This document shows, piece by piece, positions 19,348 to 63,914 of a stretch of 64,000 nt of DNA. The DNA comes from Malacoraja senta. Taxonomy: Eukaryota. The stretch spans positions 4,032,001-4,096,000 of the forward strand of contig CM075995.1 in assembly GCA_038087875.1 (NCBI GenBank), in the 5' to 3' direction. Position 1 is the first letter of the stretch; each line of letters opens with the position of its first letter. The translations under genes and the position numbers were made by a program. Below the pieces are notes generated by a model. The model saw only the letters and a list, made by a program, of their open reading frames with translations, made no database searches and was not told where the DNA came from.

Positions 19348-19498
19348 CTGAGTATGTGGGCGAGAGAGAGGTTGATAGAGGGGGAGAGAGGGGAGAGGGG
19401 GGGAGGAGAGGGGGGTAGAGGGGGGTAGAGGGGGGTGGAAGAGGGGGGGAAAGGGGGGGGAGAGGTGGGGTAGAAGAGGGGGGGAAGAGGGGGGGGGG
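19212..19498 (+). repeat. Compound (CT)/(GT) microsatellite followed by a G/A-rich polypurine tract
   Basis: Seen directly in the sequence. Confidence 0.9.
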
Positions 19499-21677: not shown

Positions 21678-21741
21678 GGGAGAGGGAGAGGGAGAGGGAG
21701 AGGGAGAGGGAGAGGGAGAGGGAGAGGGAGAGGGAGAGGGA
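21678..21741 (+). repeat. (GGGAGA)n microsatellite between the two Tx1 copies
   Basis: About 10 perfect hexamer units. Confidence 0.95.
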
Positions 21742-22261
21742 GCGAGCTTTTTCAGCTCTGAAGTTGAGACGGATTGAAGCAGCTTTTCAAGGACTTTGTC
21801 GATGGGGAAGGAACAGAGGCAGAGGGGCTTCGTAGGTTAACTTATCATTGGACTGGTGAAACTCACCTCTGCTCTAGGAATCCTCCACGATTGTGAAGAT
21901 TCCTGAGATTTTGCTCCATTGTCGAGGGTGCGGTTGTCGTTGGTGGACTGCCAAGAGTGCCTGGAGATCGAGGGTATGAAGATTGTAGTGTTTTGTCATT
22001 TTTTTAGCACCGTTTCTCTGCCCTAAAGGCATTTTGCTCAGGCGGATGCCGGGCTTAATGTGAAGATGGTACTTTTGCTTCCGGCAAGACTGGGTTAGAG
22101 CTTCCCAAAAGCTGCTCTCGGCTGTGGACATATTTGGGGATTTTCTTGCTTCAGCTGGAGGCTTCTGATTTCTGCTACTTGCATTTGACTGTGACTGTCT
22201 GCGGGACTTAACGTGGAGCTGAGCTGCTGGGCTGACTGGAGCTGGTTGTGCCTCTGTCAGG

Positions 22262-24576: not shown

Positions 24577-24649
24577 TTTGGGGACTTTTGGGTGTTCCTC
24601 AGACAGAGAGTTGTTGTGTCAACGGGGAGTATGAGGGGTTTAATCTAGT

Positions 24650-27600: not shown

Positions 27601-28351
27601 CATCGGGCCAAGGCTCCGGGATATATCTCGGGCACCGGCTCTACACAACCTGAGCCGCCTTTCTGAGATGATCAGCATACCGTTTCGTGATACGAAGAGA
27701 CGCACACTGTATCGGATGTTCCTGCACATTCTGCACCTCCTTGCCTTTGTTTCCCGTCCTGACACACCTTGGAGGACGGTGTTACCACCTGAAGGCGAGG
27801 GAGGTCCCTGGTGGGGGTCCTTCTATAAGGGAGTTGTCCCCCTTTATATTGGGGACCTGGGGTGGAGACTGTTGCACGGAGCGGTGGTTTGTAATATACT
27901 TTTGAGTAGGTTCACGGGATCGTCCGCCGCGTGTATTTTCTGTGGCAAGGAAGAAACCGTGTTCCACGTATACATGGAGTGTGCGAGGCTACTGCCCCTG
28001 TACCAATATCTGAAGGGGTTGTTCCTCAAGTTCTGGTTGCATTTTAGTCCCACGATTCTAGTGTGTGGGCATAAGGCAGGGTGTGGGGAGAGCGAAGTGG
28101 GGGGGTGGGACCTCCCTGTTGGTTTGCTCCTGGGCCTGGTTAAGATGGCCATTCGTGGGTCCAGGCAGCGGGCGGTCGATGGTGAGGCTAGAGTTGGCTG
28201 CCTGCCCCTCTTCCGGGCGTACGTCCGTGCACGGGTGTCCCTGGAGCGGGAACATGCGGTGTCCACGGGGACTCTGGAGGCCTTCCGTGGGCGCTGGTCA
28301 CCACGTGGGGTTGAGAGTATAGTAAATAATGAATGTACTGTTGTACTATAA
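24650..28351 (+). pseudogene. Tx1 ORF2 (APE-RT-zinc finger), frameshifted
   Basis: ATLNLNG, FLQETH, NVYAP, GGDFNC, SRIDR, SDH; KSPGLDGLTVEF, KNWRPVSLL, LDQEKAFDRV, GVRQGCP, AYADDV; CIFCGKEETVFHVYMEC. Confidence 0.92.
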
Positions 28352-28944
28352 TGATTTGTTTTGATATAATGTATCTTTTGATTATGTATTGATGTGTTGT
28401 ATCATTGATTGTGTCGAATAAAATTTTGAAACTTTTTTTTTAAAAGAGAGAGAACATTAATTTGTTAACCCTGTTCTCAGACTGACTCTTCAAAGAGGTG
28501 ATTTTGGTGTTCATGGTGTTACAAAAGTTGTTGATGTATAACAAGATATAAATGTGTCTGCATGTTGTGCCCAGGAGCCTCTGGATGCACTTTTATCGAT
28601 ATAGTCAAGCTGTGCTGCAACTTCCCTGATACACTTCGTGCAAGCCAACTAAAAGCACAAAAATCAATTAGCGTAAATCCCAAGTGCTCCTACTTAAAGA
28701 ACTTTTTGTTCTATTTTGCTAAATTTGGATTCATATATTCTTGATTTCCCTCATGCTGCTTTCTCTGTATTACACCTTGGCATTTTGTTCTCCAACCTCT
28801 ACAACCCAGGTTAAAACATAGACAACATTGATCTAAGGGTGGGCCGTTGTCTTTAGTGAGATTCTATGTCAACTTATCATTATCTCCAGTTGGGAACAGA
28901 AGAACAATGGTTGAGAGCTTCAAGTAAAAAGTTAAGAGCCTCAA

Positions 28945-36013: not shown

Positions 36014-36315
36014 TTGTTTTGTTTTGTTTAGTTCAGAGATACAGCATGGAAACAGGCCCTTTGGCCCATCGAATCCGCACCGACCAGCGATCCCCACACA
36101 CTAATACCATCCTACACACACATGGGACAATTTACATTTATACCAAGTCAATTAACCTATATCCCTGTAGGACTGTGGGAGGAAACCGAAGATCTCGGAG
36201 AAACCCATGCAGGTCACGGGGCGAATGTGCAAACTCCATACAGACAAGCACCCGTAGTCAGCATCGAACCCGGGTCTAAGGCAGTAGCTCTACCGCTACG
36301 CCACCGTGCTGCCCC
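36014..36315 (-). mobile_element. HE1-like SINE (deleted duplicate at 39005-39187)
   Basis: Head, core and tail. Confidence 0.8.
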
Positions 36316-38658
36316 CAAAAACATTGTAATTAGATTTAATGGCATGTAATAATTGTGACACATTTCTCCATGGGGGTAACATCTGGCTTCCCAAGAAAAA
36401 GTATGGAAGCTAAAATTGTCACAGAGGCATTTTATGAGTTTGAGTTCCGTTCCTTTCCTTTCCTTCCTTGGGAGAGAATGCCTTTTAATTCTTAGTTCCA
36501 TCTAAACTATTTAATTCCAATTTATGTAAAAAATGCAATGTCTGAAATTAAGATGTTAATAAGTGACATTTTGCTTGTGTGGAAACTGCTGTAAATACCA
36601 CTTGATTACACTGCTCTTGAATTATTCAGCGTTTTTAATAACCCTCGCAGCTTATCATTCCTATAGCCTGGTATTTCCATCCTTTTTTAATTAGCTATCA
36701 CCGCCATATTGATACGTCTGACAGCTTTGTCATGATTATAATGCTAATATTTTAGCAAATTTTATTATTTCAGTTATGGGACCTGCAGATGTCGTTTGGT
36801 GATGTGGTTACTCTGGTCCAGAAAAAATCAACCCAGTCGAGCCGAGTTATGCATTGCTCAGACCGCCCATTCATTTCTACAGTCACTGCATTCTGTCATA
36901 CAAAGCACACCCTATTAATGATTTCCCAGCCACTGTCTGTTAACAAGCCAGGGCATTTTGCTAATGATCAAACTCACCAAGAAGGGCTTTATTGACACTG
37001 TCAGAACTACTTGCTGTCTCAGCGGTAATACCAAACAGCTGTACAGAATGCATAATCTCTGATGTGCATCTGCGTCTGCATATTAAACAGAACACACCAA
37101 ATTAAATGAAGGGATATAGGAGGCAGAGAAGCAACCTTTTCTGCTATTTACATCTTGGTTTTTTTTGCTGGATATTCACCCATGAGGAAGGGAGGGAGGG
37201 AGGGAGAGGGAGGGAGAGGGAAGTATTATGAATGTGAGCCTGATACAACACGCTGGCATACAGTTTGCAGTGTGTCCATGTTTGCTCTTGTTAACAGATC
37301 ATAAGGTTGTAATTGATAGTAGAATTAGGCCATTCGGCTCATCAAGTCGACTCTGCCATTCAATCATGCCTGATCTATCTCTCCCTCCTAACCCCATTCT
37401 CCTGCCTTCTCACCATAACCTGACTCTTGTACTAATCAAGAATCTACCAATCTCTGCTTTAAAAATATCCACTCACTTGGCCTCCACAGCCTTCTGCGGC
37501 AAAGAATTCCACAGATTCACCACCGTCTGACTAAAGAAATTGCTCCTCATCTCCTTCCTAAAAGAACGTCCTTTAATTCTGAGGCTATGACTTTTAATCC
37601 TAGACTCTCCCACTAGTGGAAACATCCTTGATCCTAGTGGCAGGAGTTGAGAGGGATAGATAGATCTGAAACGGCGGAGTAGGTTCGATGGCACACATGA
37701 CCTAATTCTGCTCCTATGACTAATGAACTTATAAAAACACAGATACTCAAGTGGTGGGTTTAAATTAATTGTATGTGAACAGTACAAGCTGAGTAGATCA
37801 CATCCTCAAAGAACTGGTATAATTAGAGAAGAATCTTCCAATGCAAATTGGATATCCCTACGCACACACATATTTTACATCTTCCCATTGTGTGCTTAAC
37901 AGTTAGTATGGGTGGCTGGTAATAATCTACTTAATTTCCACTTGTCACTTGCTTTCATTATCACCTTCACTTCTCCTCAGCATGTTTCGCCCAAGAGCAT
38001 GTATCTTAACACATTTTGTTGACAACTATAAACCTGTCAGGCAAGGAGGCCAATTATTATTGACAACTTCACACTGAGGCGATGTGCAAGGCAAGGTCTT
38101 TTGCACAGAGAGCGGTGAGTGCTGCCAGGAGTGTCTTGGAGAGCAGGAGACTAAGAACTGTATAAGATCTTGAGGGGAATAGATAGGGTAAATGCACAGA
38201 GTATTTTACCCAGATCAGGGGAATCAAGAATCAGAGGACATAGGTTCAAGGTGAAGGGGGGGGGGGGGGAGTGGGAATTTAATAGGGGATTCATTTAAAT
38301 GGAATTGGGGCAACTTTTTCACACGGAGCGTGGTGGGCATACAGAACAAGCTGCCAGAGCAGATAGTTGACGCAGGTACTATAACATGTAAAAGAGATTT
38401 GAAGAGGTAGATGGATAGGAAAGATTTAGTCTGAAGAAGGGTCTCGACCCAAAACATCACCCATTCCTTCTCTCCAGAGATGCTGCCTGTCCCGTTGAGT
38501 TACTCCAGCTTTTTGTGTCTATCAGGGTTATAACAAGGCTAGGTGGGACTTGTGTAGATGGGGAATCTTGGTCAGCATGGGAAAATTGGGGCTAAGGGCC
38601 TGTTTCCATGCTGTATGACTATAACTCTATGATCTGCAGGGAATGGAGAGATATGCAT

Positions 38659-38858: not shown

Positions 38859-41800
38859 GACCATCCAAAATGAATCACTCTGATGTACTGGCCCCAGATC
38901 TAGAACACACAACTTCTGGCATATCCATTTTTGGAAGGAATGAGATTGTTATTTTGAAAAGTAGATGAGTTCCTAAATATTTTTACAAATATATTTCATT
39001 GCATTGTTTTGTTTTGTTTAGTTCAGAGATACAGCATGCTTGGCCCATCGAAGTGGGAGGAAACGAAGATCTCGGAGAAACCCATGCAGGTCACGGGGCG
39101 AATGTGCAAACACAGACAAGCCCCGTAGTCAGCATCGAACCCGGGTCTAAGGCAGTAGCTCTACCGCTACGCCACCGTGCTGCCCCCAAAACATTGTAAT
39201 TAATTTAATGGCATGTAATAATTGTGACACATTTCTCCATGGGGGTACATCTGGCTTCCCAAGAAAAAGTATGGAAGCTAAAATTGTCACAGAGGCATTT
39301 TATGAGTTTGAGTTCCGTTCCTTTCCTTTCCTTCCTTGGGAGAGAATGCCTTTTAATTCTTAGTTCCATCTAAACTATTTAATTCCAATTTATGTAAAAA
39401 AATGCAATGTCTGAAATTAAGATGTTAATAAGTGACATTTTGCTTGTGTGGAAACTGCTGTAAATACCACTTGATTACACTGCTCTTGAATTATTCAGCG
39501 TTTTTAATAACCCTCGCAGCTTATCATTCCTATAGCCTGGTATTTCCATCCTTTTTTAATTAGCTATCACCGCCATATTGATACGTCTGACAGCTTTGTC
39601 ATGATTATAATGCTAATATTTTAGCAAATTTTATTATTTCAGTTATGGGACCTGCAGATGTCGTTTGGTGATGTGGTTACTCTGGTCCAGAAAAAATCAA
39701 CCCAGTCGAGCCGAGTTATGCATTGCTCAGACCGCCCATTCATTTCTACAGTCACTGCATTCTGTCATACAAAGCACACCCTATTAATGATTTCCCAGCC
39801 ACTGTCTGTTAACAAGCCAGGGCATTTTGCTAATGATCAAACTCACCAAGAAGGGCTTTATTGACACTGTCAGAACTACTTGCTGTCTCAGCGGTAATAC
39901 CAAACAGCTGTACAGAATGCATAATCTCTGATGTGCATCTGCGTCTGCATATTAAACAGAACACACCAAATTAAATGAAGGGATATAGGAGGCAGAGAAG
40001 CAACCTTTTCTGCTATTTACATCTTGGTTTTTTTTGCTGGATATTCACCCATGAGGAAGGGAGGGAGGGAGGGAGAGGGAGGGAGAGGGAAGTATTATGA
40101 ATGTGAGCCTGATACAACACGCTGGCATACAGTTTGCAGTGTGTCCATGTTTGCTCTTGTTAACAGATCATAAGGTTGTAATTGATAGTAGAATTAGGCC
40201 ATTCGGCTCATCAAGTCGACTCTGCCATTCAATCATGCCTGATCTATCTCTCCCTCCTAACCCCATTCTCCTGCCTTCTCACCATAACCTGACTCTTGTA
40301 CTAAATCAAGAATCTACCAATCTCTGCTTTAAAAATATCCACTCACTTGGCCTCCACAGCCTTCTGCGGCAAAGAATTCCACAGATTCACCACCGTCTGA
40401 CTAAAGAAATTGCTCCTCATCTCCTTCCTAAAAGAACGTCCTTTAATTCTGAGGCTATGACTTTTAATCCTAGACTCTCCCACTAGTGGAAACATCCTTG
40501 ATCCTAGTGGCAGGAGTTGAGAGGGATAGATAGATCTGAAACGGCGGAGTAGGTTCGATGGCACACATGACCTAATTCTGCTCCTATGACTAATGAACTT
40601 ATAAAAACACAGATACTCAAGTGGTGGGTTTAAATTAATTGTATGTGAACAGTACAAGCTGAGTAGATCACATCCTCAAAGAACTGTATAATTAGAGAAG
40701 AATCTTCCAATGCAAATTGGATATCCCTACGCACACACATATTTTACATCTTCCCATTGTGTGGCTTAACAGTTAGTATGGGTGGCTGGTAATAATCTAC
40801 TTAATTTCCACTTGTCACTTGCTTTCATTATCACCTTCACTTCTCCTCAGCATGTTTCGCCCAAGAGCATGTATCTTAACACATTTTGTTGACAACTATA
40901 AACCTGTCAGGCAAGGAGGCCAATTATTATTGACAACTTCACACTGAGGCGATGTGCAAGGCAAGGTCTTTTGCACAGAGAGCGGTGAGTGCTGCCAGGA
41001 GTGTCTTGGAGAGCAGGAGACTAAGAACTGTATAAGATCTTGAGGGAATAGATAGGGTAAATGCACAGAGTATTTTACCCAGATCAGGGGAATCAAGAAT
41101 CAGAGGACATAGGTTCAAGGTGAAGGGGGGGGGGGGGGAGTGGGAATTTAATAGGGGATTCATTTAAATGGAATTGGGGCAACTTTTTCACACGGAGCGT
41201 GGTGGGCATACAGAACAAGCTGCCAGAGCAGATAGTTGACGCAGGTACTATAACATGTAAAAGAGATTTGAAGAGGTAGATGGATAGGAAAGATTTAGTC
41301 TGAAGAAGGGTCTCGACCAAAACATCACCCATTCCTTCTCTCCAGAGATGCTGCCTGTCCCGTTGAGTTACTCCAGCTTTTTGTGTCTATCAGGGTTATA
41401 ACAAGGCTAGGTGGGACTTGTGTAGATGGGGAATCTTGGTCAGCATGGGAAAATTGGGGCTAAGGGCCTGTTTCCATGCTGTATGACTATAACTCTATGA
41501 TCTGCAGGGAATGGAGAGATATGCATTATGTGTAAGCAGAAGAGATTATTTAAACATGGCATCATGGGCATTGAGGGCCGAAGGGTCTTATATTGTGTTG
41601 TATTGTTTTACGATCTATGTTAACTCTACAAAATAATCATGCTTATCTAGATTTCATTTGTTTTTATAAGACTAATTCTGACTGCAATGATAATTTACAA
41701 TGAGTTTATTTTTCATAGAATCTATCATAAGATGATCATTTACGATCTTGAAAAACATCGAATTAAATAATGTAAATATGTGATGCATTAGCACGATGAA

Positions 41801-47889: not shown

Positions 47890-49290
47890 CAGAATATTAA
47901 AAATTGTCTTCCCGCCGACCTAGATCCACTGCAGTTCGCCTACAGAGCCCAACCGGTCCGCAGAGGGCGCAGTCTCCACTACACTGAACCTCGCACTGTC
48001 ACACCTCGACCAGAGAAATACTTATGCCAGGATCCTCTTTTTAGACTTCAGCTCTGCTTTTAATACAATCATTCCACAGCAGCTGGTGGAGAAGCTGAGG
48101 CTGTTAGGGTCGATACTGGCACTTGTAACTGGGTCCTTAACTTCTTATCACAACGGCAGCAGACAGTCAGGGTGGGCAGTCGGACATCAAAAACCATCGC
48201 CGTCAGCACTGGCTCACCCCAAGGCTGTGTCCTAAGCCCCCTGCTGTTTAGTCTGCTTACACATGATTGTACTGCTAGACTCAATAACAACTATATCAAC
48301 AAGTTCGCTGATGACACAACAGTGGTGGGTCTCATCAGCGATAATAGTGAGTCGGCATACAGGATGGAGGTGGAGCTGCTCACAGGATGGTGCAGATCCC
48401 ACAACCGCACTCTTAATGTGGGAAAAACTAAGGAGATGGTGGTCGACTTCAGGAGGGCGGGAAAACAACACCATACACCGCTGTATATTGATGGAACTGC
48501 TGTGGAGAGGGTCAGCAGTGTGAAGTTCCTAGGACCACCTGTCGGATGACCTGACCTCTATGACCAACACCACAGCAGTGGTCAAAAGAGCCCAACAGCG
48601 ACTCCACCCTCTCCGGAGACTTCGGAAAGCAGGTCTCCCCACTGCCCATCTAAGAACCTTCTATAGGGGCACAATTGAAAGCATAATAACCTACGGCATC
48701 ATTTCCTGGTTCGGGACCTGCAAGGCTTACGAACAATATCAACTAAACAGGATAGTGAAGACCGCCAGCAGGATTATCGGTGCCCCACTCCCTTTCCTGC
48801 TGGAGATATACAAGAAGAGGAGCATCAGTAGAGCCATCTCCATCATCCAGGACCCCTACCACCCATCACACCACATCTTTTCCATTCTGCCATCTGGGAA
48901 GAGGTACAGGAGCATCAGCTGCAAAACCAGCAGGATGCTCCTCAGCTTCTTCCCACAGGCAATAAGACTGATTAACGGACTTTGTCCCCTCCCAAAACAT
49001 CGCTCATTCACACATCCAACCGTGCCCATACTTTGACAGTTAGGCACCTGTCAAGTAAAGCCACTGTGAAGCCACTGTCGATCAGAATGACTGTTTTTAT
49101 TATATTGTTAATTTTTAGGCCTACTTTCTTTTTAAGAATGGTAATTTTAATTTATTTTTAAAGCTCTATGTATTATCCTTTTGTTTTTTACACTGAATGG
49201 AAACCGATTGAGCAACGTTTTTTCGTTTCCTCTGTGTATGCGAGTACTCAGTGAAATGATATTAAAGAAATACTGAATACTGAATACTGA
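47890..49290 (+). mobile_element. Rex1/Babar-type LINE, 5'-truncated
   Basis: [43 protein letters not shown]; (GAATACT)n tail. Confidence 0.82.
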
Positions 49291-49543
49291 TCTCCCGCGA
49301 GAAAATGAACGCGGTCGCGGGGAGAACGTACAAACTGTGCAAACAGCCCCCGTAGTCAGGATCGAACCTGGGTCTCCGACGCTGCAAGCACTGTAAGGCA
49401 GCAACTCTACCGCTGCGCCACCGTGACCGCCTTCATAAATGAAATGATCCATCTCAGGCAACACTTTGGTGAATCTGCTCTGCAGCCTCTCCAGTGCAAT
49501 GATATCTTTCCTAAGGTGAGGCAACCATAAAAATTGAGAAAGG

Positions 49544-50478
49544 TGTAGGGGTTTTGGTTCCCTTCACTTCGGGCCCAACTGCCCGATAAAGAGGTTCCCC
49601 TGGGTTCTAGACCTCGGAATTATGGTGGGATATGATAAAAAATTGACTTGACCAGAGCGTGCTGATGAGAGAAAACAGAAACCAAGACGGGCTCAAAGCA
49701 AGTCTAAAATTTACAGGCTTTATTAAACAATGAGAAATCGAATCTCACCAACACTACATAATACATGACTAAACTTATGCTTTAAACTAAGACTATGGAA
49801 AGAAAATTATCGGGCACGTCGTAAAACTTACTTTACACAATTTTACAAATACACCCCCTTTCCCCTTCTTCTCTCAACCTCTATCCTATTTTCGGGAACT
49901 TCACCAGGTCGTCTGGGGTACTTACAGCTAGATTGATGCAGGGTCAGGAGTCATCCAACAGAGCAGAAAAGAGAGCGAAACCTTCCTTGACTGTCCTTTT
50001 TTATACCTGAGTTTCTCCCTTGAAACCCCCCAGGTGGTCCTCTGGACAAAAGTGCCTTTCGATGATTCCCAGTTTCGATCTGGCATGAACAATAGGCTTC
50101 CGATGATAATGGGTTTGGTGATGTCACGATGCCTCAGCCTGATCGTTATCCCATCACCTGGATGGGCTCCGATTGTCCCGATGGATGCGTCATCCACGAT
50201 GATGATTGCGTTGCTGCTGGGCTGTTTACCCCCGTCTGCTGAGGCTCGGTTCCTTCCTTTGTCTTTCCAAGATAATCTCGTTATCTCCGTCCCGGCCTTT
50301 CCTGTTCACACCATTCGCATAGTCATGTAATACCCAGGCCCACAGACAGGTTTTAAACTGGTTCTTCCTTTGTGGATTGTTTTTTTTTCCTTTTGCAGCC
50401 AGCATGTCCGTTTTAAAATGTCCAGGTCCTTATCCCCGAGTTCTTCCATAATTTGAGGATTTGCCACAATAGCTTACA
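49544..50478 (-). repeat. 3' LTR of provirus
   Basis: Same length as 59337-60271 and roughly 95% identical by eye; minus-strand TATAAAA at 49999-50005 and AATAAA at 49719-49724. Confidence 0.95.
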
Positions 50479-50794
50479 TGCCCCTACGATACGTCCAGGC
50501 TTGCACGGACCGTATCGATTGACAAACTTAGTGTGCAACTCCTCCAGTCTCAAGAGTTGTAAACTCCCCTGTCGAGATTGTGAAATTATGTACCCCAAAA
50601 GACCCCTTAATTGCTAAACTAGACCCTCGAAGCACATTAACTTACACTATCACCTTTTACTTTAAATAAATCCCACAAACCATACAGTACCATCACGACC
50701 ATTCCCTGAAAATGCAGGGATCACAACATACGTACGAAAACCATTGCAATAGAGTACAGACATTTTACAGTGCTGAGGTGTCGTTACAGCTGCG

Positions 50795-52080
50795 TCAGGC
50801 GGCTCGATTTACCAGCTGTTGTAATTTGGTCATCCTCCTCCGCCTTTTAAATTTGCAATTAATGCATAGCAAATACACTACAATTATCATCTGGCAGATG
50901 ATCAGAACATGGGACACGATGCGGGCCCATGCTGGAACTATGATCCAGGACTCCAGGACTCCAGGTCCCACCAACTTGGAGACTTGATTTCTTCGATCTC
51001 CCTGGCGATATCCAGTGTCTTTTGTTCCAGGGAGAAGAAGTGTTTGTGCGACAACTCGACCGCCGCCAGCAACTCTTTTAATTTTTCCTTCACTGGGGGA
51101 ATATCATACCCGAAATGGGCCACATAGTTAGATAAGTCCGTTACATTTTCTCGTACCGAGAGGTGAACCGAAGAAGGTTCCGGGATGGGTAATTTTCGCT
51201 GCTGTGCCACATGGACTTCTGCCCTGGGTTTAAAACAGAAGCTGCTGTGTGGTATCGGGCACCACAGCTGTGATCCGTGCTGATACCGCTGGGCACTTGT
51301 GGTGACACAGTATGTCCCACTGCTTATATACGCCACCTGTGGAGGGACATGGTCTGCCGCCATCGCCTCCATGGTACAGTTTATAGGCTGTGCCCCAACA
51401 GTCCTGAACCCACACTGAGGCCTAGCCTCGGCGCCCATGTGCTCCCCGGCTCCGACAACCCAAAAGGTCAATGCCTGTCACAGCTTGCTCCCTCACTATG
51501 ACATAAGGCGGGACCTTCCTGTAGCGAATATGCACCCCCCCCCCCACGAACAACTCCCACGTTCTCCACTCGGTACAGAGGAGCTGGTAGTGCCGAGGTT
51601 CCCATCACCGGGATTCTTACGACCACTCCCATTATAGTGTGATTGGACTTTCCACAATCCACCGGTACTGGGTAGGCCTCGGAGGCCACACGAAGCTGAC
51701 AAGGACTCAAAGTGCTGTTATAAGGGTGTAGCGCTGCTAGGTGCTGGTTGCTTATCCAGGAGGGGACCCGACCTTGCCTCAGGTCTTCCAGGTTGCTCCT
51801 CCCCTCCCCCAACAACCACGCACCATACAGCCCACACACCTCATTCTGTGCAGCCTGATCGGACGCATTCCGGTCCTCTTTAATCAAAGCGTTTATCGTT
51901 TTTGCATGTGTCTCCAATTGTGCTATGATTTCATTTAGATGTAGAGTCATTGCCACCTCGTCGTGCAGCCCCGATCCTACCACCGCATTTTCCTCCCCCA
52001 GAACCTCGTTGCCATCATCCATACGGCGGGGCTACCCATCTGGGAAACAAAGCAAAACACCTCCTTGCCTCCACATCGCT
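50795..52080 (-). pseudogene. env: env: class I fusion glycoprotein-like, disrupted; 5' boundary uncertain
   Basis: Lies between IN and the 3' LTR. Contains a heptad segment (LHLNEIIAQLETHAKTINALIK), a Cys-rich beta region, N-glycosylation sequons (NAS, NST, NHT, NCT, NVT), a second heptad (LEQKTLDIAREIEEI) and W-rich SWWDLESW. Removing an 8-bp duplication (50945-50960) restores TM IVSHVLIICQMIIVVYLLCI, a basic stop-transfer KFKRRRR and a stop at 50795. Confidence 0.85.
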
Positions 52081-52354
52081 GTCCGCCTCCCTGCACTCCA
52101 TCACACCCATGGAAGAGTGGCCATCCGGCCAACGGTAGCGGCTACCGTCCTAATAATGGCATTCGGGGTTTTGTTTTGTCTGTTGTGGTCTACTTTTCCA
52201 CAGCCCATCCCTTCGAGGCAGCCGACGTTCCCGTACTGTCCGTCCCTGTACTCCCCTGTATACAAAACCCTATATCTATTACCAAACGCTAACTACATCT
52301 ACTCACACACAAACCAATGCTATATACAACGCCACCCGTCTCCGGGTGGCCAAC

Positions 52355-55300
52355 TCATAACTGGTCCCCGTCACGCTGGGGCCACCCCTCTGGCGGGCCC
52401 ACCCGTGCAGGCCAGAACTCCTCCTGTCGAGGGGTCTGACTGCCCCTCACCTCCCTTTGCACTACGGGGTTTCGAGATACCCCTACGTTCCCTGCGGAGA
52501 CTGGGCTCCCTCCAACCGCACTCCGTAGTGCCCTGTTTCGGTCATTCTCCTTCCCGGCCCTCCTGTGGCCGGCCCTAGCCCTAGGTTTGATTAGGGATGG
52601 GGACCACCTTACTGGGGGTTTAGTGACCCTGTTACTCCTGTGTCTGACCGGGGGCTCCCACACCAGAGGTGATACCTCCATCTCCTCTGCTTCTGCCAGT
52701 TCTGCCTCTCTTAGGCAGTCTACGGTACCTGCCTGCGGAGGGCTGGAATCAGCATCCTTCCCCGCTGCTTCCAGTCCTCACCCTGGGACACAGCAGGCTA
52801 CTTCAGGCTGACTACCTGTGGGCTCGCCTGGCTCCCCTACGGTTTCCACATCAACCCGGGTCTGTTCTTGATCCTGTTCCCTGACATGTACCACTTTCTT
52901 ACTTTTCCCTGCCATTGTGGGGTCGAACAATTTACACTGGTTGATGTGGAACTATTTGACTCTATGGGGAAGCTGAATGGCATACACCATGGGACTGGCC
53001 TTGTTCACTATGTTGTATGGGCCAGCATACAAGGGTTCGAACACCCCTACCCTAGCATATCTCCTGACCATTACCTGGTCCCCCACTGCCCACTCGCAAT
53101 GCCTCCGAGGCTCCAGTAGTAGCTTGTTTCTTTGGTGCTGGGCCCCCATGTTTCTGGCTGCCTGCCAGTGAACCTGCCTAAGTTGTTCAAATAGCCCCTT
53201 GGCGAACTTGTCCCGGTTCACTTCCCTGAGCTGTCCCTCTGTTAAGGCTGGGACCATAACGTGCATGGGCGTTCTCATGACCCGGCCCGTCATAAGCTCA
53301 TGGGGAGAGTACCCCGTACTCCTGGACTGGCTGGCCCGAATCCCCATAAGGACCAGGGGTAAAACCTCCACCCACAGGTTGGGTGAGTCCCCTGTTTCCT
53401 TCCTTATCCTTTCCTTTATTGTCCGGTTCAACCGCTCTACTGGACCTGAGGACTGGGGGTGGTAGACCACATGCCACTTGGCCTTGATGCCCAGTATTCT
53501 AAGGGTGGACTGCATGACCTGTCCCGTGAAATGGCTCCCCTGATCTGACTCCACGAACTGTGGGAGTCCCCACCGGGTGAACACCTCCCTAACCAGGATT
53601 TTTGCCATACCCTATGTACAGTTATTCCTAGATCCTTCTGTTCAACTGCATTCCTCAATTCTCTACCATTTACCATGTACGTCCTATTTTGATTTGTTGT
53701 GCCGAGATGTAGTACCTCACATTTATCAGCATTAAACTCCATCTGCCATCTTTCAGCCCACTCTTCCAAATGGCCTGAATCTCTCTGTAGACTTTGAAAA
53801 TCTACTTCATTATCCACCACACCACCTATCTTAGTATCATCTGCATACTTACTAATCCAATTTACCACACCATCATCCAGATCATTGATGTACATGACAA
53901 ACAACAGTGGACCCAACACAGACCCCTGAGGCACCCCACTAGTCACCGGCCTCCAACCTGACAAACAGCCATCCACCATTACTCTCTGGCATCTCCCATT
54001 CAGCCACTGTTGAATCCATCTTGCTACTCCACCATTAATACCCAACAATTTAATCTTCTTAACCAACCTTCCATGAGGAACCTTGTCAAAGGCCTTACTG
54101 AAGTCCATATAGACAACATCCACTGCTTTACCCTCATCAATTTCCCTAGTAACCTCTTCGAAAAATTCTAGAAGATTAGTCAAACATGACCTTCCAGGCA
54201 CAAATCCATGTTGACTGTTCCTAATCAGACCCTGCTTATCCAGATGCTTATATATATTATCTCTAAGTATCCTTTCCATTAATTTGCCCACAACTGACGT
54301 CAAACTAACAGGTCTATAATTGCTAGGTTTACTCTTAGAACCCTTTTTAAACAACAGAACAACATGCGCAGTACGCCAATCCTCCGGCACTATTCCCGTT
54401 TCTAATGACATTTGAAATATTTCTGTCATAGCCCCTGCTATTTCTACACTAACTTTCCTCAATGCCCTCGGGAATATCCTGTCAGGACCTGGAGACTTAT
54501 CCGTTTTCATATTTTTCAAAAGTGTCCGCACCTCTTCTTTGAATCTCATAGTTTCCATTGCTACTCTGCTTGTTTCCCTTACCTCACATAATTCCATATC
54601 CTTCTCCTTGGTGAATACCGAAGTAAAGAAATTGTTCAATATCTCCCCCATCTCTTTTGGCTCTGCAGATAGCTGTCCACTCTGACTCTCTAATGGACCA
54701 ATTTTATTCCTTGTTATCCTTTTGCTATTAATATAGCTGTAGAAACCCTTTGGATTTACTTTCACCTTACTTGCCAAAGCAACCTCATATCTTCTTTTAG
54801 CTTTTCTAATTTCTTTCTTAATATTCTTTTTACATTCTTTATACTCCTCAAGCACCTCATTTACTCCATGCTGCCTATAATTATTGTAGATCTCTCTCTT
54901 TTTCCGAACCAAGTGTCCAATTTCCCGTGAAAACCATGGCTCTTTCCAATTTTTACTATTTCCTTTCAAACGAATAGGGACATAAAGATTCTGTACTTAA
55001 AATGTTACCCTTAAATGTCCTCCATTTCTCTTCTACATCCTTCCCATAAAACAACATGTCCCAATTCACTCCTTTTAAATCCTTTCGCATCTCCTCAAAG
55101 TTAACCTTTCTCCAATCAAAAATCTCAACTCTAGGTCCAGTTCTGACCCTCTCCACCTTCACTTTATGGATATATCTATCCCCGCCCTTCCCTACGGCTG
55201 CTACAATCCTCTCTAATAGGGGTTTAGTGGTCAGGGGCTTCCCGTCCGATCAGGTGTACCCTCGGCGGGACCAGATGGCCAGATATTCCGAGCAGGAATT

Positions 55301-57449
55301 GAATGTGAACATGCTGTCCGAACATATGGTGTATGGGGGGGGGAAACGCTCGGGATGGGTGATCACGTACATTACCGCCGCCAGCTCGGCCTGCTGGGTG
55401 CTTAACGTATGTGGGAGTTTAAGGGCTAGGGCTATCTCCGCCTCGGGGTCCCAGATCCCACAGCCCGTGAGCCTTATGCCCTCGGTCACGATACTGGACC
55501 CGTCCACGTATATTTCCCTACCCGTGGGATGTAACCCTGCTCTGCCCAAAGTCCACCTCCCATACCCCTTCCACCGAGCAATGGTGTGGCTCCCCTGGGT
55601 ACACCAAATTGGCTGCGAGCTTGGGCTCGCATAGCCTCTCAACCCGTAAGGCTATTTGGGAAAGGAGAAGAGTCCAGCGAGTGATCCTCGCACTGCTAAC
55701 GGTCCCATCCTTAATCCGACCGTCCAGCAGCATCTGGGTTGGGGTATGGTGGGTCAGGAGGGTGATGGGGGACACTCTTATGAAGACCTGTACCCTCTTC
55801 ACTGCCCAGTATGTGGCTAGCAGGTGCCGCTCACAGTTTGAATAGGACCTTTCTACCTCTGTGAGGACTCTGGAGGAATACACCACTGGCCTTAACTTGC
55901 CGTGCCGTTCCTGGAGGAGCACTTCGCCCAGGCCCTCTTTGCCTGCGGCTACCTCCAGGAAAAATTCCTCCCTGTAGTCGATGGCTCCCAGAGCTGGGGC
56001 CTTTTGCAGGTCCCGCTTCAAATGGACGAAGGCCGACTCGCACTGCTCATCCCACTCCCACTCTACCCCTTTGCGTAGCAGCCGGTGCTGCGGTCACGGC
56101 ATAGTCCTCTATAAAGTCTCGGCAGTAGCCCATGACTCCCAGAAATGACCTTACCCCCCCCCCCCCACGTCCGCTGGGATTGGGAGTTCCTGCACTGCCT
56201 GCCTTCTTGCTGTATCGATACCCCTTTCTCCGGCCCTAAGGGTCAGTCCCAAGAACTTTACCTCTTGTAACCCTATCTGTGCCTTCTTGGGATTTACTTT
56301 TAAACCGCTCTTACAGAGCAGCTCCAGCAGTTCGTTTACTAGGGGCCCATGTTCCTCACTGGTGTCCGTGAATAGCAAAATATCATCCACATACTGGACG
56401 ATCTTGTGGGGCTCACTGAATTCCTTTAAACATTCCGCCATACATTGGTGGAAAATACTGGGGCTATTGTGGAACCCTTGGGGAAGACAGTTCCACGTGT
56501 ACTGCTGCCCCTTGAATGTGAAAGCAAATTTGTACTGGTCTTCCTTCCTGACCGGGATAGACCAGAAACCGTTCGCGATGTCTAGCACCGTAAATACAGA
56601 TGCAGACGCCGGAATTTCCTCTAATAGGTCTGCTACGGCTGCCACAGTTGGTGCGCAAGCCGGAATGTTCTTATTCAGGACCCTATAATCTACCGTGGCC
56701 CTCCATGAATTGTCTGGCTTCCGTATGGGCCAGAGCGGTGAGTTCACATGGGTGGTTATGGGCCTCAAAACGCCTTGCTTAACCAGTGAACTCAGGGCGA
56801 CTTCTAAGTCAGCCTCCGCTTCTCGGGGAAACTATACTGTTTCTGCAGTCGGGACATGGGATCCCCGTCTATCCTGACCTCTGTTCCTGTGACCCTTCCA
56901 CAGTCATGCTTGTGAGTAGCGAATGCGGCCAAATTTTGCTTAACATGGCCTCGATACTCTGTCGGGGTCTGCCTCACTAGGGCCTCTACATCGTACCACT
57001 CTCTGGGCTTCACAACACACAGAGCCCCTCTCTCTGGTGCCCTCTCGATGACCATTACCTCCTTCTCTCTCTCAGCCCCTTCTCCTGCTATGCCCCACAA
57101 ACAGTGGTTCCTCAGGTCCACCAGGACCTGGTGGGCCACTATAAAGTCGGCGCCTAGTATCCCCTTTCCCTCCTACTCCCAACTCATCAGGACACACTTC
57201 CACTGTGCCTGGAGTGCTCCTAATCGAATGGACAAGGGAACAGAGAAAAACCCCGTCTTCTCATTTCCTGTAAAACCGACAAGACTATAGGGCGCCCCAC
57301 TAGATAGAGGGGATGTACGGGGATGGTACTGGAAGCACCTGTGTCCAGCAGGTAACTCCCGACCACATCCTGGACCTCCATCTTGACCCAGGGTCTCCCA
57401 CATGGGCATACTGTAACGGGCATAGGAATGTGGGCTGTTTTGCTGGCAG
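52355..57449 (-). pseudogene. pol: pol polyprotein: protease, RT, degenerate RNase H, second RNase H, integrase; frameshifted and interrupted by CR1
   Basis: LLDTGAS (PR); SPLWPIRKPD, VLDIANGFWSIP, LPQGFHNSP and YVDD (RT, 56151-56768); RPVVYSSRVLTEVERSYS..ERHLLA (RH1, 55518-56021); YVDGS..AELAA..SDS (RH2, about 55160-55515); SDQGSHF..HPQSSGPVERLNRTIK..GPY (IN, 52952-53608). The frame continues through stops to the RSNRVTKPPVRW tail at 52355-52681. Confidence 0.92.
53612..55160 (-). mobile_element. Internal CR1 LINE ORF2 fragment nested in proviral pol
   Basis: ORF 53437-54969 has KSPGPDRIFPR, NYRPVSLTS, DFSKAFDKVPH, GVPQGSVLGP and YADDTK; it is nearly identical to the CR1 at 7.3-8.0 kb and has no 3' tail. 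Confidence 0.93.
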
Positions 57450-59334
57450 TCATAAAGGTGCCGGGGGTGCGGATACGGGCGCGCGCTGGCCTGTTGCCAT
57501 GGCTACCTGTCCGGACCCTCCAGCCTTGGACTGCAAATAGGCCAATAGATCTTTTACATCTATTGTTCCCGGCACGGCCGCTCCCTCGTCCGGGGCTGGG
57601 TCGGCTGTTACCGGGGTCCTATCCTCCACTGCTCTACTTGGGTTTCTGCACTCCCTCTTGTAGTGCCCTGGTTTCCCACACCCGTAGTACGCCGGCCTCA
57701 TCTCGGAAGAGGTCCGGTTGCCTTCCTGTTTCCACTGCCTCCTTTTGGGGGGTGCCGGTGCTATATTGTGCACCTTGCCCTTAAAGGGCTTCTCCTCACT
57801 TCTCTCCCCGTTGCGATAAGCAAGGGTGAGCTTCCTTATTACCTCCGCCTCGTTAAGGCTTGGGTCCGCTGGGTCGAACCAGTGCTCGGCCTTTGCCCTA
57901 ACTCGCGGGATGCAATTCGCTACCAAAGTCTTCAGCCAGTGGGCTGTTCTCTCATCTAAATTCCGCCTAGCTAAAGGCGTTCCACACGCTCCCTCATACA
58001 CTGCCCACAGTCTGTCTGCGAACATGTCCGGGGACTCAGCTACCTGCTGCTTCGTATCCCCCACCCTGGCGAAAGGACTACCCTGATTCAACCCCATGGT
58101 CTCCAGAACCGCTGTCTGTGCCGCTACCCATGTTTCAGGTCTTCCCCCTTCCCTGGAGGTCACCGCCTTGCATAGGTAGGAATCCAGGGTCATCAGTAGT
58201 AGCTTTACCCGTTCTACCTCATCGCAATCATTTATGTCGGCTGCCTGCTGCACCTCCATAAAATGCAATGACGGGTCTCCCGCCCTGGTTAACCTGGGAA
58301 CGTAAGCCACCATCCCCCTCAGCACGTGTGCCCCATGGGGAATGATGATATCACTCTCTATGGGCCCCCTATCTGCCTGCCCTACCGGGGGACCATATTT
58401 CCTTTGCCGTACTGGGCACATCTGCCCTTCCCGGATGTTGCCCCTTTACCCCCTGCTCTCCCACCATGATCGGTAACCCCACCACCTCGTGGTGTGCTAC
58501 ACATGGCGCAGACGCCGCTAACTGAGGGTGCTCTTCCGCCCCTCCTTGGGTCTGTCCCTTCCCGGACAACCCGAACCCCACCTGCCGACCCGGACCTATT
58601 CCCGGCGCCTCAGGAGGCGGTCTATTCCTCTTTGCCCCTGGGGAATCACATGCTGAGGGAAGCCCTCTGCCCCTGGGGGACCCCCCTGGTCCTACCAGGT
58701 GAACCCGTCCCCTAGTCTTGGACAGAGTCTCCTCCAGCTGCGCTACCCTTGCCTGGCAAGGCCCATGATCACAATCCCCTTGCTCGCTATGGGCCACCCT
58801 GTATGCTGCTTGGATATCTTGGAACTTTCACTCCAGCTCCCTGTATCTCTGTGTACTCTGAGCCAGGCGTTCCTGGGTATTCCGCTCCCTCTCCTTTGCC
58901 TCTACTGCCTGACATTGGAGGAATTCCTGGGCATTTCTGTGGGACTCCCTAGCCTGCAAGATACACTGCCTGGCTACACTGAGTTCCTCACATAGCCCTT
59001 CCCCTTCTCTAGCGCTTTCCTCAGCACTGGCCCTAGCTATTCTCAGTTGCTCTTCTAGACTCTCTACCTGTCTCTCCATTTTGGCTACCTGCTGTGATAG
59101 GCACGCTAGCCGAACTGCCTTTTCCTTCCCTATATTATAACCTTTACTTTCAGTCCATTCTGCTGCAGCTGCTGCGGGCTGCTGTGCTGTCAAAAGTGCT
59201 ACCACCCATTGTTTGGTGAGATTGATCTTTTTAAACAGATAAGAGGAGATTCTCTCCTCCATCTTGCTACGTTCTCTCACCCCCTCTGGCAAGTCACATA
59301 TCCCAAACCACCGAGGTCCTGCCATGGTCGCCAT
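57450..59334 (-). pseudogene. gag: gag: N-terminal coiled coil, capsid-like region and CCHC zinc knuckle; broken into several ORFs
   Basis: ORF 58828-59334 is heptad- and Glu/Arg-rich; ORF 58369-58797 follows; ORF 57450-58421 contains YYGCGKPGHYKREC (CX2CX4HX4C with the first C mutated). Confidence 0.85.
59316..59333 (-). promoter_or_regulatory. Primer binding site, tRNA-Arg(TCG)-like
   Basis: TGGCGACCATGGCAGGAC lies 3 nt inside the 5' LTR boundary. It matches 16/18 of the complement of the vertebrate tRNA-Arg 3' end GTCCTGCCGCGGTCGCCA (recalled, not searched), and both mismatches fit CpG decay. Confidence 0.75.
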
Positions 59335-59336
59335 TC

Positions 59337-60271
59337 TGTAGGGGTTTTGGTTCCCTTCACTTCAGGCCCAACTGCCTGAAAAAGGGGTTCCCCTGGGTTC
59401 TAGACCTCAGAATTATGGTGGGATATGATAAAAGGTTGACTTGACCAGAGCGTGCTGATGAGAGAAAACAGAAACCAAGACGGACTCAAAGCAAGTCTAA
59501 AATTTACAGGCTTTATTAAACAATGAGAAATCGAATCTCACCAACACAACATAATACGTGACTAAACTTATGCTTTAAACTAAGACTATGGAAAGAAAAT
59601 TATCAGGCACGTCGTAAAACTTACTTTACACAATTTTACAAATACACCCACTTTCCCCTTCTTCTCTCAACCTCTATCCTATTTTTGGGAACTTCACCAG
59701 GTCGTCTGGGGTACTTACAGCTAGATCGATGCAGGGTCAGGAGTCATCCAACAGAGCAGAAAAGAGAGCGAAACCTTGCTTGACTGCCCTTTTTTATACC
59801 TGAGTTTCTCCCTTGAAACCTCCCAGGTGGTCCTCTGGACAAAAGGGTCTTTCGATGATTCCCAGTTTCGATCTGGCATGAACAATAGGCTTCCGATGAT
59901 AATGGGTTTGATGATGTCACGATGCCTCAGCCTGATCGTTATCCCATCACCTGGATGGGCTCCCATTGTTCCAATGGATGGGTCATCCACGATGGTGATT
60001 GTCTTTGCTGCTGGGCTGTTTACCCCCGTCTGCTGAGGCTCGGTTCCTTCCTTTGTCTTTCCAAGATAATCTCGTTATCTCCGTCCCGGCCTTTCCTGTT
60101 CACACCATTCGCATAGTCCTGTAATGCCCAGGCCCACAGACAGGTTTTAAACTGGTTCTTCCTTTGTGGATGGGGGGTTTTCCTTTTGCAGCCAGCATGT
60201 TCGTTTTAAAATGTCCAGGTCCTTATCCCCGTGTTCTTCCATGATTTGAGGATTTGCCACAATAACTTACA
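59337..60271 (-). repeat. 5' LTR of provirus
   Basis: Direct repeat of 49544-50478; minus-strand TATAAAA at 59792-59798, GTAAGT at 59713-59718 and AATAAA at 59512-59517; adjacent to the PBS. Confidence 0.95.
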
Positions 60272-60699
60272 AAGGAGAGGAGAAGGTTGATTTAGTCAGA
60301 GGGTGGTGACTCTGTGGAATATAATGCCACAGACGGCTGTGGACGACGTCAGTTCAGTTCCGTTCAGTTTTGCTTATTGCCACATGTACCAAGGTGTTTG
60401 TTGCGTGCTATCCAGTCAGCAGAAAGACAATACATGATTACAATCGTGCCATTTATAGTGTATAGATACAAGATAAGGGAATAACGTTTAGTGCAAGGTA
60501 ATAGCAACAAAGTCCAATCAAGAATAGTCCAAGGGTCATCAAAGAGGTAGGTTGTAGTTCAGCACTGCTCTCGGGTTGTGGTCGGATGATTCAGTTGTCT
60601 GATAACTGTCCCTGAATCTGGTGGTGTGCGTTTTCACCTTTTGCCTGATGGGAGAGGGGAGAAAAGGGAGTGGCCAGGGTGCGACTCATCCTTGATTAT

Positions 60700-60903
60700 T
60701 GTAAAGGATCTATAACGAGGCATCGTTACTTTACTATCTTTATTCATACTGGAGCATTACACATTGCACTAGCTGTACGTGGTCTGTCACAGGAACTAGA
60801 GAGTGATCTGTGGGTGGGGAGGTTGTAGATATACTTGTGATATGGGGAGTGGTTAGTAGGTATGAGGTCACTATGTTAAAGGCACATGCATATCTCATCT
60901 ACA
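60700..60903 (-). repeat. Putative 3' LTR of the Gypsy element
   Basis: TGTA...TACA termini, immediately preceded on the minus strand by a polypurine tract; the partner LTR is outside the window. Confidence 0.75.
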
Positions 60904-60972
60904 TCTTTCCTCTTCGAAACAACAGGCAAATACAATGGTGACATGGCGACCACGGCTCATGCGCTAGGATAG

Positions 60973-63914
60973 TTAAACAAAATCGCCATAGCGGTCAGGC
61001 GGTTTGACAAGACGTCCCGCCCGGGTTCGCGTCTCACCATCCACCCTTCCTGCAGGAGGAAGAGGCACCGGCGGGGACAGACGAACCTGAAAGGGGGAAA
61101 CGGGAGGAGACGGAGGAGACCGCGGCACCGAACCCGGAGGTGATGCGAGATCAGGACCGGGAAGAGCGCGGGCAGGCGAGCGAGGACTAGTCAGAGCGGG
61201 GTGGAACGGAAGGGGCTGAGGAGGAGCAGAACGTTGCATGTCAGGAAGGACGGGCAGAGCAACGCCCTGACGCGAAACAGGCAGTGGGGGAGCAAAGGGA
61301 TCCGCGGCAGGAGGACGCGGCTCGTTGACGAGCCGAAGGTGCTGGCGGGACCGTCGGTAAATGGCTCCAGCGTGGTCGACGAGATAGGACCTGGGCGACC
61401 CCGCAGAGCCGACGACGGTAGCGAGCTTGGAGTGACCGGGAGCGGTCTGCATACGGACAACTTGACCGGGGAAGAGGCGCGGCAGCGGGTGGCAGGACCT
61501 GTCATGGGAACGCTTTTGGACGTCGTGCCTGAAGGCAATGCGTTTCTGAACTGCCGCAGGTGGGAGGATGGAGGGTATGAGGGAGCGCTGGGCCACAGGG
61601 AGCGGGAGTCTGGTAGCGCGAGACATGAGCCGCTGAGCAGGTGAACCCATGGCAGAGTCGCGGGAAATGTTCCGAAGGTTGAGGAGGGCCAGATGGAAGT
61701 CGGAGTTAATGCCACCACACTGTTCCAACAGGTGCTTCGCGCTGCGGACTGCGCGCTCGGCCAAACCGTTGCTTTGCGGGTACTCCGGGCTGCTGGTGAA
61801 ATGGCGGAAGTTCCATCTGGAAGCGAACGCTTTAAACTCGGAGCTCGTGAACTGGCTGCCATTGTCCGATTGCAGGCTTGCCGGGGGGCCAAAAGTGCCA
61901 AAATGAGGGTACAACCTATCGATGATGGCCGAAGAGGTTATGGAATGCAGCCGGTCGACCACAAACCAGCTGGAGTAGGAGTCAACGAGAACCAGGAAGT
62001 GTTTGCCCCGCCACTCGAAAATGTCGGCGGCAAGCGCCATCCAGGGCAGTTCGGGCGCGGGCTGCTGCAGAAGCGGCTGACGCTGCTGGTGGGGGGCGAG
62101 GCTGTTGCAGGTGGAACACGAGGAGACCCTCTCCCGGATGTATTTGGCCATATCCGGCCAATAGAACTGGCTCCTGGCGAGAGACACGGTGGCTTCGGCC
62201 CCAGGATGACCGCGGTGAGCGACTTGAAAATAGTGGTCGTGCAGCGCCGCGGGCACGACCACCTTGTGACCCTTCACCACCACGCCGTCATGCAGTACGA
62301 GCTCGTCACGGACCAGGAAGTAGGGCACGGCACCAACCGGCAGTGCCGAACGACGGTCAGGCCAGCCCTGCCGGATGACGGCAGACAGCTGTTGCAGGGC
62401 AGGGTCATTGGTAGTGTGTTCAACCAGGGACTTCATCTGCTGTGAGGGGACGATGTTCAATTGTAGCACCAATAGCTCAGACATTTCATATTGGTGGCGA
62501 GCGGTGGACGTTAGCGGGGCGCGAGACAACGTGTCGGCCACGAACATGTCCTTGCCCTTACGATAAACCACCGTGAACGTGAAGCGCTGGAGCTGCAGCA
62601 TCATGCGCTGCAGGCGTGATGAGGCCACATGGATCGACTTGTTGAGGATGGTGACAAGTGGCTGATGGTCAGTCTCAACGGTGAAAGTGTTGCCCACGAT
62701 GTAGTCCCGGAATTTGGAGCAGGCAAACACCACGGCCAGTAGCTCCTTCTCGATCTGCGCGTAGTGCTGTTCGGTGGCGGTCATGGTGCGGGACGCGAAG
62801 GAGACAGGCAGCTGCAGGCCGTCATGGACCTGGAGACAGGCGGCACCGAGTCCGAACTGAGAGGCGTCGCAGGTGAGGACAATGGGACGCTGCAGGTCAA
62901 AGAACTTGAGCGTGGGGGTGCTGATCAGCTTAGACTTAAGAATGTCGAATGCCTTCTGATGGTTGGGTAACCAAAGCCAGGACGTGTCCTTTTTTTTACC
63001 AGATCCCTCAGGGAAGCGCTGAGCTCGCTGAGGTCGGGGATGAACTTCCCCAGGTAGTTTACCAAGCCTAGGAAGCGTTGCAGGCCTGCCACATTGGTAG
63101 GAGGGGGCATCCCTGAAATGGCAGCCGTTTTCTGCGGGTCTGGCTTTAACCCCTCAGCGGTGAATACATGTCCAACATAGGTGACCTCCGGGACGCGGAA
63201 TCGGCACTTCTTGGGGTTCAGTTTCAAGTTGATTTGCCGGGCCCGGTCCAGGACCTGGCGGAGGTTGACATCGTGTTCGGCAACGTCCTTACCGTAAACG
63301 AGGATGTCGTCAACAATTATGGCGCAAGGTAGACCTAAAAACAACTGCTCCATTGTCCACTGAAATACCTCGCTGGCAGAGTTGATTCCGAATGGCATTC
63401 GGAGGAACCGAAACCTTCCATAGGGGGTGGCGAAAGTTGTCAAAATGGACGACCGCTCGTCCAGTGGTATCTGCCAGAAGGAGCTTTTGGCATCGAGGAC
63501 AGAAAAAACCGTTGCTGGACCAACCTGTGCAGCGACTTCTTCCACCGTTCTCATAGGGTAGTGACGGCGTCTAATGGCCAGGTTGAGGTCTTTGGGGTTG
63601 ATGCAGATGCGTATCTCGCTCATGTCCTTTTTAGCAGCAACAACCATGGAAGAGACCCAGCTGGTGGGCTCGACGACCGCCTTTAGGATGCCCATTTGTA
63701 CCATACTGTGTAGTGTCGCCTCCACTCTGTCCCTCATGGCGAAGGAGACACGGTGAGGAGCATGGACCACAGGAACGATCTTACGGTCCACTACAATCTT
63801 GTAGCTGCAGGGTAGTTTGCCTAGCTTATCATCAAAGCGGTCGGGATAATCGGCCAGCGGGTCCATAAGAGTCTGCACCTGGTGGATGTCACGGTGGAAG
63901 TACACCAGTCCCAT
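60973..63914 (-). pseudogene. pol: Gypsy pol (RT-RNase H-integrase) with a frameshift at the T-run near 62990
   Basis: VLDAKSSFWQIPL, RMPFGINSASEVFQ, IVDDILVYG; YAQIEKELLA..TDHQPL; HRGHPG..CSTC; SDNGSQF; PQSNGLAERAVR. Confidence 0.92.

Follow-up and report, generated by a model that had tools for sequence, protein, structure and literature searches.

The stretch of DNA analysed here, 64,000 nucleotides of the Malacoraja senta genome (GenBank assembly GCA_038087875.1, contig CM075995.1, positions 4,032,001 to 4,096,000, forward strand), is referred to below as the window. It contains a damaged envelope gene (env), which forms the 3′ end of a dead endogenous provirus (49544-60271, minus strand, 10.7 kb). 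Very probably this is the broken env of an endogenous retrovirus whose intact product is predicted to have been an F-type (class Ib) fusion protein, and not a gamma-type Env built of surface and transmembrane subunits (SU/TM). Altogether 29 env relatives were found, those named coming from Pristiophorus, Rhinoraja, Mustelus, Heterodontus, Chiloscyllium and two frogs, which suggests an elasmobranch host; most are included in profiles A1 (21 rows) and A2 (27 rows, two of which are window pieces), and the closest is designated P0001. Sister copies of the env were examined as contigs of four public sequencing runs. The following parts of the gene were distinguished (window coordinates, strand, description):

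50795-50944, minus strand: transmembrane (TM) helix and basic cytoplasmic tail, by hydropathy; 36-58% identical to the TM region of the relatives
50944-50965: 8-bp tandem repeat at a change of frame (-2 to -1); other copies differ here
50965-51444, minus strand: predicted domain II (beta), heptad B and Trp pair; 62% identical to P0001 residues 263-419, domain assigned from the model
51437-51547, minus strand: short middle piece, predicted domain I; 60% identical to P0001 residues 223-257, frame -1
51561-52007, minus strand: C-terminal half of heptad A and predicted domain III core; 82% identical to P0001 residues 70-217
52006-52009: deletion junction, at which the furin site, fusion peptide, F2-like part and N-terminal extension are gone; loose contig ends in four of four runs
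52009-52079, minus strand: likely remnant of the interrupted env signal peptide, a putative assignment based on an ATG and a short hydrophobic stretch

Read on the minus strand, the remnant specifies two heptad helices with a Cys-rich spacer between them, followed by a Trp pair, a hydrophobic segment whose best 19-residue Kyte-Doolittle mean is 2.57, and a basic tail terminated by the stop at 50795. This is the order of elements given in the original prediction, which had been made from the DNA letters alone and had proposed an F-type fusogen. Two of its elements need qualification: heptad A has kept no more than its C-terminal half, and the membrane-proximal segment described as Trp-rich does contain the Trp pair, but part of its Trp richness lies inside the 8-bp repeat itself. 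The lack of a gamma-type immunosuppressive domain (ISD), a CX6CC motif and an upstream furin site, noted in the original prediction, agrees with the three minus-strand frames of 50791-52100, in which no CX6CC, ISD-like [LI]QN[RK] or ectodomain furin motif was found.

Since the gene matches P0001 in three frames (82, 60 and 62% identity) and the TM segment is on a fourth piece, it must have undergone three frame changes. The middle piece is bounded by those at approximately 51440 and at a C-run (51535-51545). Slippage in this run and the 8-bp repeat had both been named correctly, but the third frame change (approximately 51437-51444) had been overlooked; there the window copy lacks a short stretch present in the relatives, and contig ends are loose at 51438-51443 in three of the four runs. 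A deletion of the N-terminal part had also been rightly proposed, but its junction lies at 52006-52009, not near 52030. The env homology of all relatives tested ends at or below approximately 52019 (except for one weak extension to 52079, with 25% identity), the contigs of all four runs carry other sequence onward from 52006, and other copies pass from the 52009-52079 segment into sequence absent from the window copy. No convincing remnant of the missing part was detected in 52008-52955 (best E ~0.02). Without a cleavage site, a fusion peptide and the N-terminal third, and with three frame changes, this copy cannot make a working fusogen.

What the deletion removed can be read from the relatives, which are 720-750 amino acids (aa) long. 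They begin with an N-terminal extension; an F2-like strand and an F2-like helix come next, and a furin motif and putative fusion peptide lead from there into the first half of heptad A. The furin motif R-x-R/K-R is present in seven of the eight relatives checked and is followed by a Gly/Ala/Thr-rich putative fusion peptide, both situated approximately 35-40 residues before the point at which the window copy begins. No receptor-binding insertion precedes the furin site in the relatives. Their N-terminal extension (~180 residues) has no equivalent in the lokiretrovirus (Loki)-like Env. Weak immunoglobulin (Ig)-like signals occur in it before the F2-like part (P0007 60-215, P0011 and P0025 25-96), comprising a Pfam V-set match on P0025 (E 0.045), atlas values of 0.88-0.89 and a UniRef name. 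The probable Ig-like domain is no more than a lead.

Structural comparison was based on AlphaFold models of two relatives, P0001 and P0021. All PDB matches listed by Foldseek (32/32 and 38/38, respectively) were paramyxo/pneumovirus F proteins or foamy virus Env (8rm0, 8rm1 and 8ozh); neither gamma-type TM subunits nor non-viral proteins, the outcome that would have spoken against an F fold, came out as best matches. In both models, which are of low confidence, domains I, II and III appear to be nested, and a long spacer rich in beta structure separates heptad A from heptad B. In the P0001 model, 233 residues (146 to 380) with nine Cys lie between the two long helices, which is consistent with the long inter-heptad spacer noted in the window. 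Together with the order of furin site and fusion peptide, these results, obtained through close natural relatives, support the predicted F-type (class Ib) nature of the intact protein over an SU/TM one. Several observations weigh against it. The models are poor (mean predicted local distance difference test [pLDDT] values of 54 and 59; template-modelling [TM] scores of 0.08-0.27), and identity in the structural alignments to F proteins is 9-15%. A VIA-align search with the P0001 model gave mostly generic coiled coils and was uninformative. The window pieces match no Pfam fusion-protein family and gave no ectodomain BLAST match to 38 reference Envs, no Pfam Fusion_gly match was obtained for P0001 and 25 relatives, and neither P0001 nor alignment A1 gave a significant match in sequence searches of the PDB. 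Foamy_virus_ENV and TLV_coat matches were likewise absent from the window pieces, P0001 and the 25 relatives.

Profile comparisons with known retroviral Envs provide a second line of evidence. The reference loci were L001 (snakehead retrovirus, SnRV), L021 (walleye dermal sarcoma virus, WDSV), and L023 and L025 (Loki-like); L001 and L021 were identified by their reverse transcriptases (RTs), which read as the SnRV and WDSV rows of the PMC7947760 supplement. The reference set further comprised 17 foamy records and 19 gamma-type records, 17 of which yielded an Env with CX6CC. In HMMER searches with the family profile, the highest-scoring reference was Loki-like Env (50-59 bits), followed by WDSV Env (13-22 bits, reached by 0/36 and 0/38 scored shuffles) and foamy Env (-7 to 14 bits). 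All 17 gamma-type Envs remained at background (≤2.4 bits), as did SnRV-like Env, which did not exceed shuffles and was raised only by hhalign. The hhalign scores with A1 were 97 for Loki, 72 for WDSV, 41 for SnRV (30 shuffles ≤34, reversed sequence 21), 28-39 for three foamy Envs and 14-22 for six gamma-type Envs. The alignments extended over 328 columns for Loki-like Env (E 3e-13), over 457 columns for WDSV Env (L021:5962-9648; E 2.2e-9), from the F2-opening Cys-Pro motif to beyond the TM segment, and colinearly over 285 columns for SnRV-like Env (L001:6407-9535; E 1e-4). The top two BFVD matches were the Envs of WDSV and walleye epidermal hyperplasia virus 1 (WEHV-1; E 3.9e-8 and 9.5e-8). 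Loki-like Envs in turn match Pfam Fusion_gly (PF00523) below the cut-off, in line with their publication. At identities of 10-20% among the compared Envs, a single sequence profile connects those of Loki, walleye epsilonretroviruses and, more weakly, foamy and snakehead viruses, and rejects gamma-type ones.

These comparisons also bear on the suspicion that the F matches are a long-helix artefact of poor models and the Env is unrelated to F or a very divergent gamma-type protein. The low pLDDT and TM-scores and the coiled coils filling the P0001 VIA-align list would fit such an artefact. However, an independent chain of sequence matches leads through Loki-like Env to PF00523, the alignments span the beta and Cys region, and the 17 gamma-type Envs and all shuffles stay at background, which largely refutes this explanation and leaves it hardly credible.

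The remaining parts of the provirus, for which P0031 served as the pol relative, are as follows:

49540-49543: target-site duplication, copy 1; 4 bp, the same 4-mer standing beside both long terminal repeats (LTRs)
49544-50478, minus strand: 3′ LTR (TG...CA); 95.8% identical to 59337-60271
52952-53632, minus strand: integrase, C-terminal part (Pfam rve, SH3); 70% identical to P0031 residues 966-1128
53633-55153, minus strand: RT fragment of a long interspersed nuclear element (LINE; RVT_1, E 1.6e-34), situated where approximately 215 pol codons are missing
55154-55543, minus strand: second (retroviral-type) RNase H (PF00075, E 7.8e-9)
55548-56831, minus strand: RT and tether, the latter a Ty3-type RNase H-like domain (RVT_1, E 3e-37; RT_RNaseH_2, E 4.9e-24); three in-frame stops
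56819-57349, minus strand: protease region; 51% identical to P0031 residues 15-191
57450-59334, minus strand: gag in pieces, with an N-terminal coiled coil and a C-terminal CCHC knuckle (zf-CCHC, E 0.0046, below cut-off)
59316-59333, minus strand: primer-binding site; TGG 4 nt past the LTR end, overlapping the first gag ATG
59337-60271, minus strand: 5′ LTR, pair of 49544-50478
60272-60275: target-site duplication, copy 2, matching copy 1

Gag (coiled coil, CCHC) comes first, followed by protease, RT, the tether, RNase H, integrase and finally env, and every gene is broken. Within pol, the P0031 match leaps from residue 748 to residue 966 across the LINE fragment, a 95% identical copy of which is present at 7323-8036. 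The LTR pair shows a Kimura two-parameter (K2P) distance of 0.041 over 934 sites, corresponding to approximately 9 million years at the rate of PMC7947760 or 41 million years at a shark rate (PMC10699275). Both LTRs are long (935 bp) and include stop-free stretches of 100-130 codons. Parts of the stretch are present in 20 of the 22 listed sequencing runs (10 studies, 7 coded organisms); no RNA run was listed among these. This provirus copy is dead and bears no sign of host use. Within the lineage, the linkage of env to pol is drawn from the window provirus only.

The gag leader is essentially absent: the primer-binding site lies 4 nt beyond the 5′ LTR and overlaps the first gag ATG (59316-59334). 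It is presumably tRNA-Arg-like; the window itself contained no tRNA, and 49000-61000 matched no Rfam family. The opening of gag (58828-59334) is a long coiled coil, like that of SnRV-like Gag, although the match between the two N-termini is one of coiled coil only (E 0.026); it may be related to the 'smc' open reading frame (ORF) reported in some lokiretroviruses. Between integrase and env, approximately 870 bp (52080-52950) have no recognised homology, and several stop-free stretches there could be remnants of accessory genes.

Other elements of the window include a 2.5-kb direct repeat (36175-38658 and 39053-41526; 99.4% identity), which either arose by recent tandem duplication or was introduced by the assembly, and a plus-strand non-LTR element with endonuclease and RT ORFs (19419-28431), which is preceded immediately upstream by a partial second copy (93-95% identical). 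Just beyond the 5′ LTR, 60973-63153 carries a further, separate pol ORF of Ty3/gypsy type, which is at least 726 codons long and covers RNase H and integrase.

The affiliation of the virus was judged mainly from its RT, which is 44% identical to that of SnRV-like L001, 32-37% to foamy and 34-35% to Loki-like and epsilonretroviral RTs. The high Env score of Loki, the tether and integrase of P0031, which are most Loki-like, and the dual RNase H (tether plus new RNase H, a feature common to all retroviruses) could indicate a plain lokiretrovirus in cartilaginous fish, a host group without an earlier report (0/6 chondrichthyan genomes scored in PMC7947760). We regard this identity as improbable: the RT lacks motifs common to the Loki rows of the PMC7947760 alignment and resembles, by eye, the SnRV row; a tree of RT and tether (28 rows) split Loki and gypsy from all others with support of 100/97; constraining the window sequence with the two Loki rows was rejected (approximately unbiased test, p-AU 0.013); and Loki-like Env lacks the N-terminal extension. 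A search for the Loki RT motif in viral contigs gave no match; metagenome contigs L024 and L027 gave chance matches to the pattern, their long ORFs having no RT or Env match.

A fish foamy-like endogenous retrovirus (ERV) with a simplified foamy Env would account for the best PDB matches of the RT and the best VIA-align row, both foamy, and a constrained grouping with foamy viruses was not rejected (p-AU 0.107), though absent from the best tree. Foamy Gag is not known to have a CCHC knuckle. The window Gag does contain this motif, neither a Foamy_virus_ENV match nor an insertion before the furin site was observed, and the RT is closer to the SnRV-like one, so that a foamy-like origin is very unlikely. 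The virus is best read as belonging to a canonical lineage that branches deeply, is SnRV-like and apparently retained Loki-like features. Against this reading count the grouping with foamy viruses just mentioned, the low support (56/30) in the best tree for a clade with SnRV and amphibian and coelacanth relatives, and the composition of the RT tree, which held two Loki RTs and no ERV-L or fish foamy-like RT.

By domain, the RT and RNase H of P0031 are nearest to SnRV, while its tether and integrase are nearest to Loki (~40% versus 22-35%); integrase shares 40-46% identity with Loki-like integrase, in a tree that was unresolved and had no CGIN1 row. The RT tree puts the virus on the side of the canonical retroviruses, with an RT most like that of SnRV and an Env, tether and integrase most like those of Loki. 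The same mosaic could have arisen if a snakehead-like virus had taken env, and perhaps integrase, from a lokiretrovirus, in which case the fold would be the same but not ancestral in the lineage. Anamniote retroviruses frequently exchange their env, and Pol related to that of SnRV is also found together with gamma-type Env (bioRxiv 10.1101/2021.11.23.469661). However, with the tether situated between RT and RNase H, several crossovers would be required for a swap, and shared slow evolution explains the pattern more simply; moreover, SnRV-like, WDSV-like and foamy Envs align too, and the integrase tree gives no decision. We therefore consider a swap a real possibility, albeit one with the odds against it.

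Judged by the relatives and by paramyxovirus F, the intact Env would act as follows. A signal peptide would route the precursor to the endoplasmic reticulum, and the probable Ig-like N-terminal domain may bind the receptor. By analogy with paramyxovirus F and foamy Env (PMC11468914), furin cleavage at R-x-R/K-R would release the fusion peptide, and a six-helix bundle would result once heptad A had extended and heptad B had folded back on it, and the N-terminal subunit would stay part of the fusion machine, while Cys-rich beta domains I and II would form the head between the heptads.

The origin of retroviral env has been called a long-standing question (bioRxiv 2021.11.05.467493). Wang and Han favoured separate acquisitions by lokiretroviruses and canonical retroviruses, as they saw no Env similarity between the two groups (PMC9040795), and according to a review the Env of epsilonretroviruses recently replaced a gamma-type one (PMC9967133). 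The window family suggests that F-type Env occurs widely in deep retrovirus branches and is perhaps ancestral to them. It is conceivable, at slightly less than an even chance, that an F-type fusogen was the ancestral Env of all retroviruses and that gamma- and beta-type SU/TM Envs were later replacements; this is plausible because the family profile aligns with Loki, WDSV and, more weakly, snakehead Env. F-type Env would then survive in lokiretroviruses, foamy viruses, the shark and amphibian lineage, SnRV and walleye epsilonretroviruses, the long-unclassified snakehead and walleye Envs would be F-type, and receptor binding would have been added variously to the F scaffold, as an N-terminal probable Ig-like domain (window family) or an internal insertion (foamy). 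Frequent env swapping is a live rival to this view (PMC9040795; bioRxiv 2021.11.23.469661). As the family forms a sequence bridge among these Envs, single origin versus swapping becomes testable.

F-like Envs have already been published for lokiretroviruses (PMC7947760), foamy viruses (PMC11468914) and errantiviruses (bioRxiv 2023.10.26.564294). The literature searched, to which Calcraft et al. 2024 (Cell) and Wang, Chen and Cui 2023 (J Virol) did not belong, nowhere called epsilonretrovirus or snakehead Env F-type, nor did the available portions of PMC6001957, PMC12583693, PMC11521997, PMC13709493, PMC10435555, PMC12456133 and bioRxiv 2024.03.17.585361. Epsilon Env has been described as distinct from gamma- and beta-type (PMC9967133; bioRxiv 2021.11.23.469661), and modelling of its SU failed (bioRxiv 2021.11.05.467493).

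Among known systems, lokiretroviruses likewise have an F-like Env, in which a furin site, a fusion peptide, heptads and a TM segment occur (PMC7947760), and share the dual RNase H and a similar tether and integrase, whereas the window RT falls outside Loki and the relatives add the probably Ig-like extension. SnRV, assigned to clade Huo / class III (PMC6001957), provides the nearest reference RT and RNase H, a Gag with N-terminal coiled coil and CCHC knuckle, and a colinear Env, but monophyly with it is unsupported (56/30), its Env stays at background in HMMER, and its tether and integrase are far less alike than those of Loki. The Envs of the epsilonretroviruses WDSV and WEHV-1 align with the family from the start of F2 to beyond the TM segment; they are, however, ~1200 aa long, and the accompanying class I Pol forms a separate clade (100/99). 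Foamy Env (class Ib; PMC11468914) has the F-like core in common with the family, but its receptor-binding domain is inserted before the furin site and its leader carries a second TM segment, whereas the extra domain of the window family is N-terminal. Paramyxo/pneumovirus F proteins (PF00523) differ in that no direct Pfam match connects them with the family, which has its own probable receptor-binding domain, while the predicted fold and the order of elements are the same.
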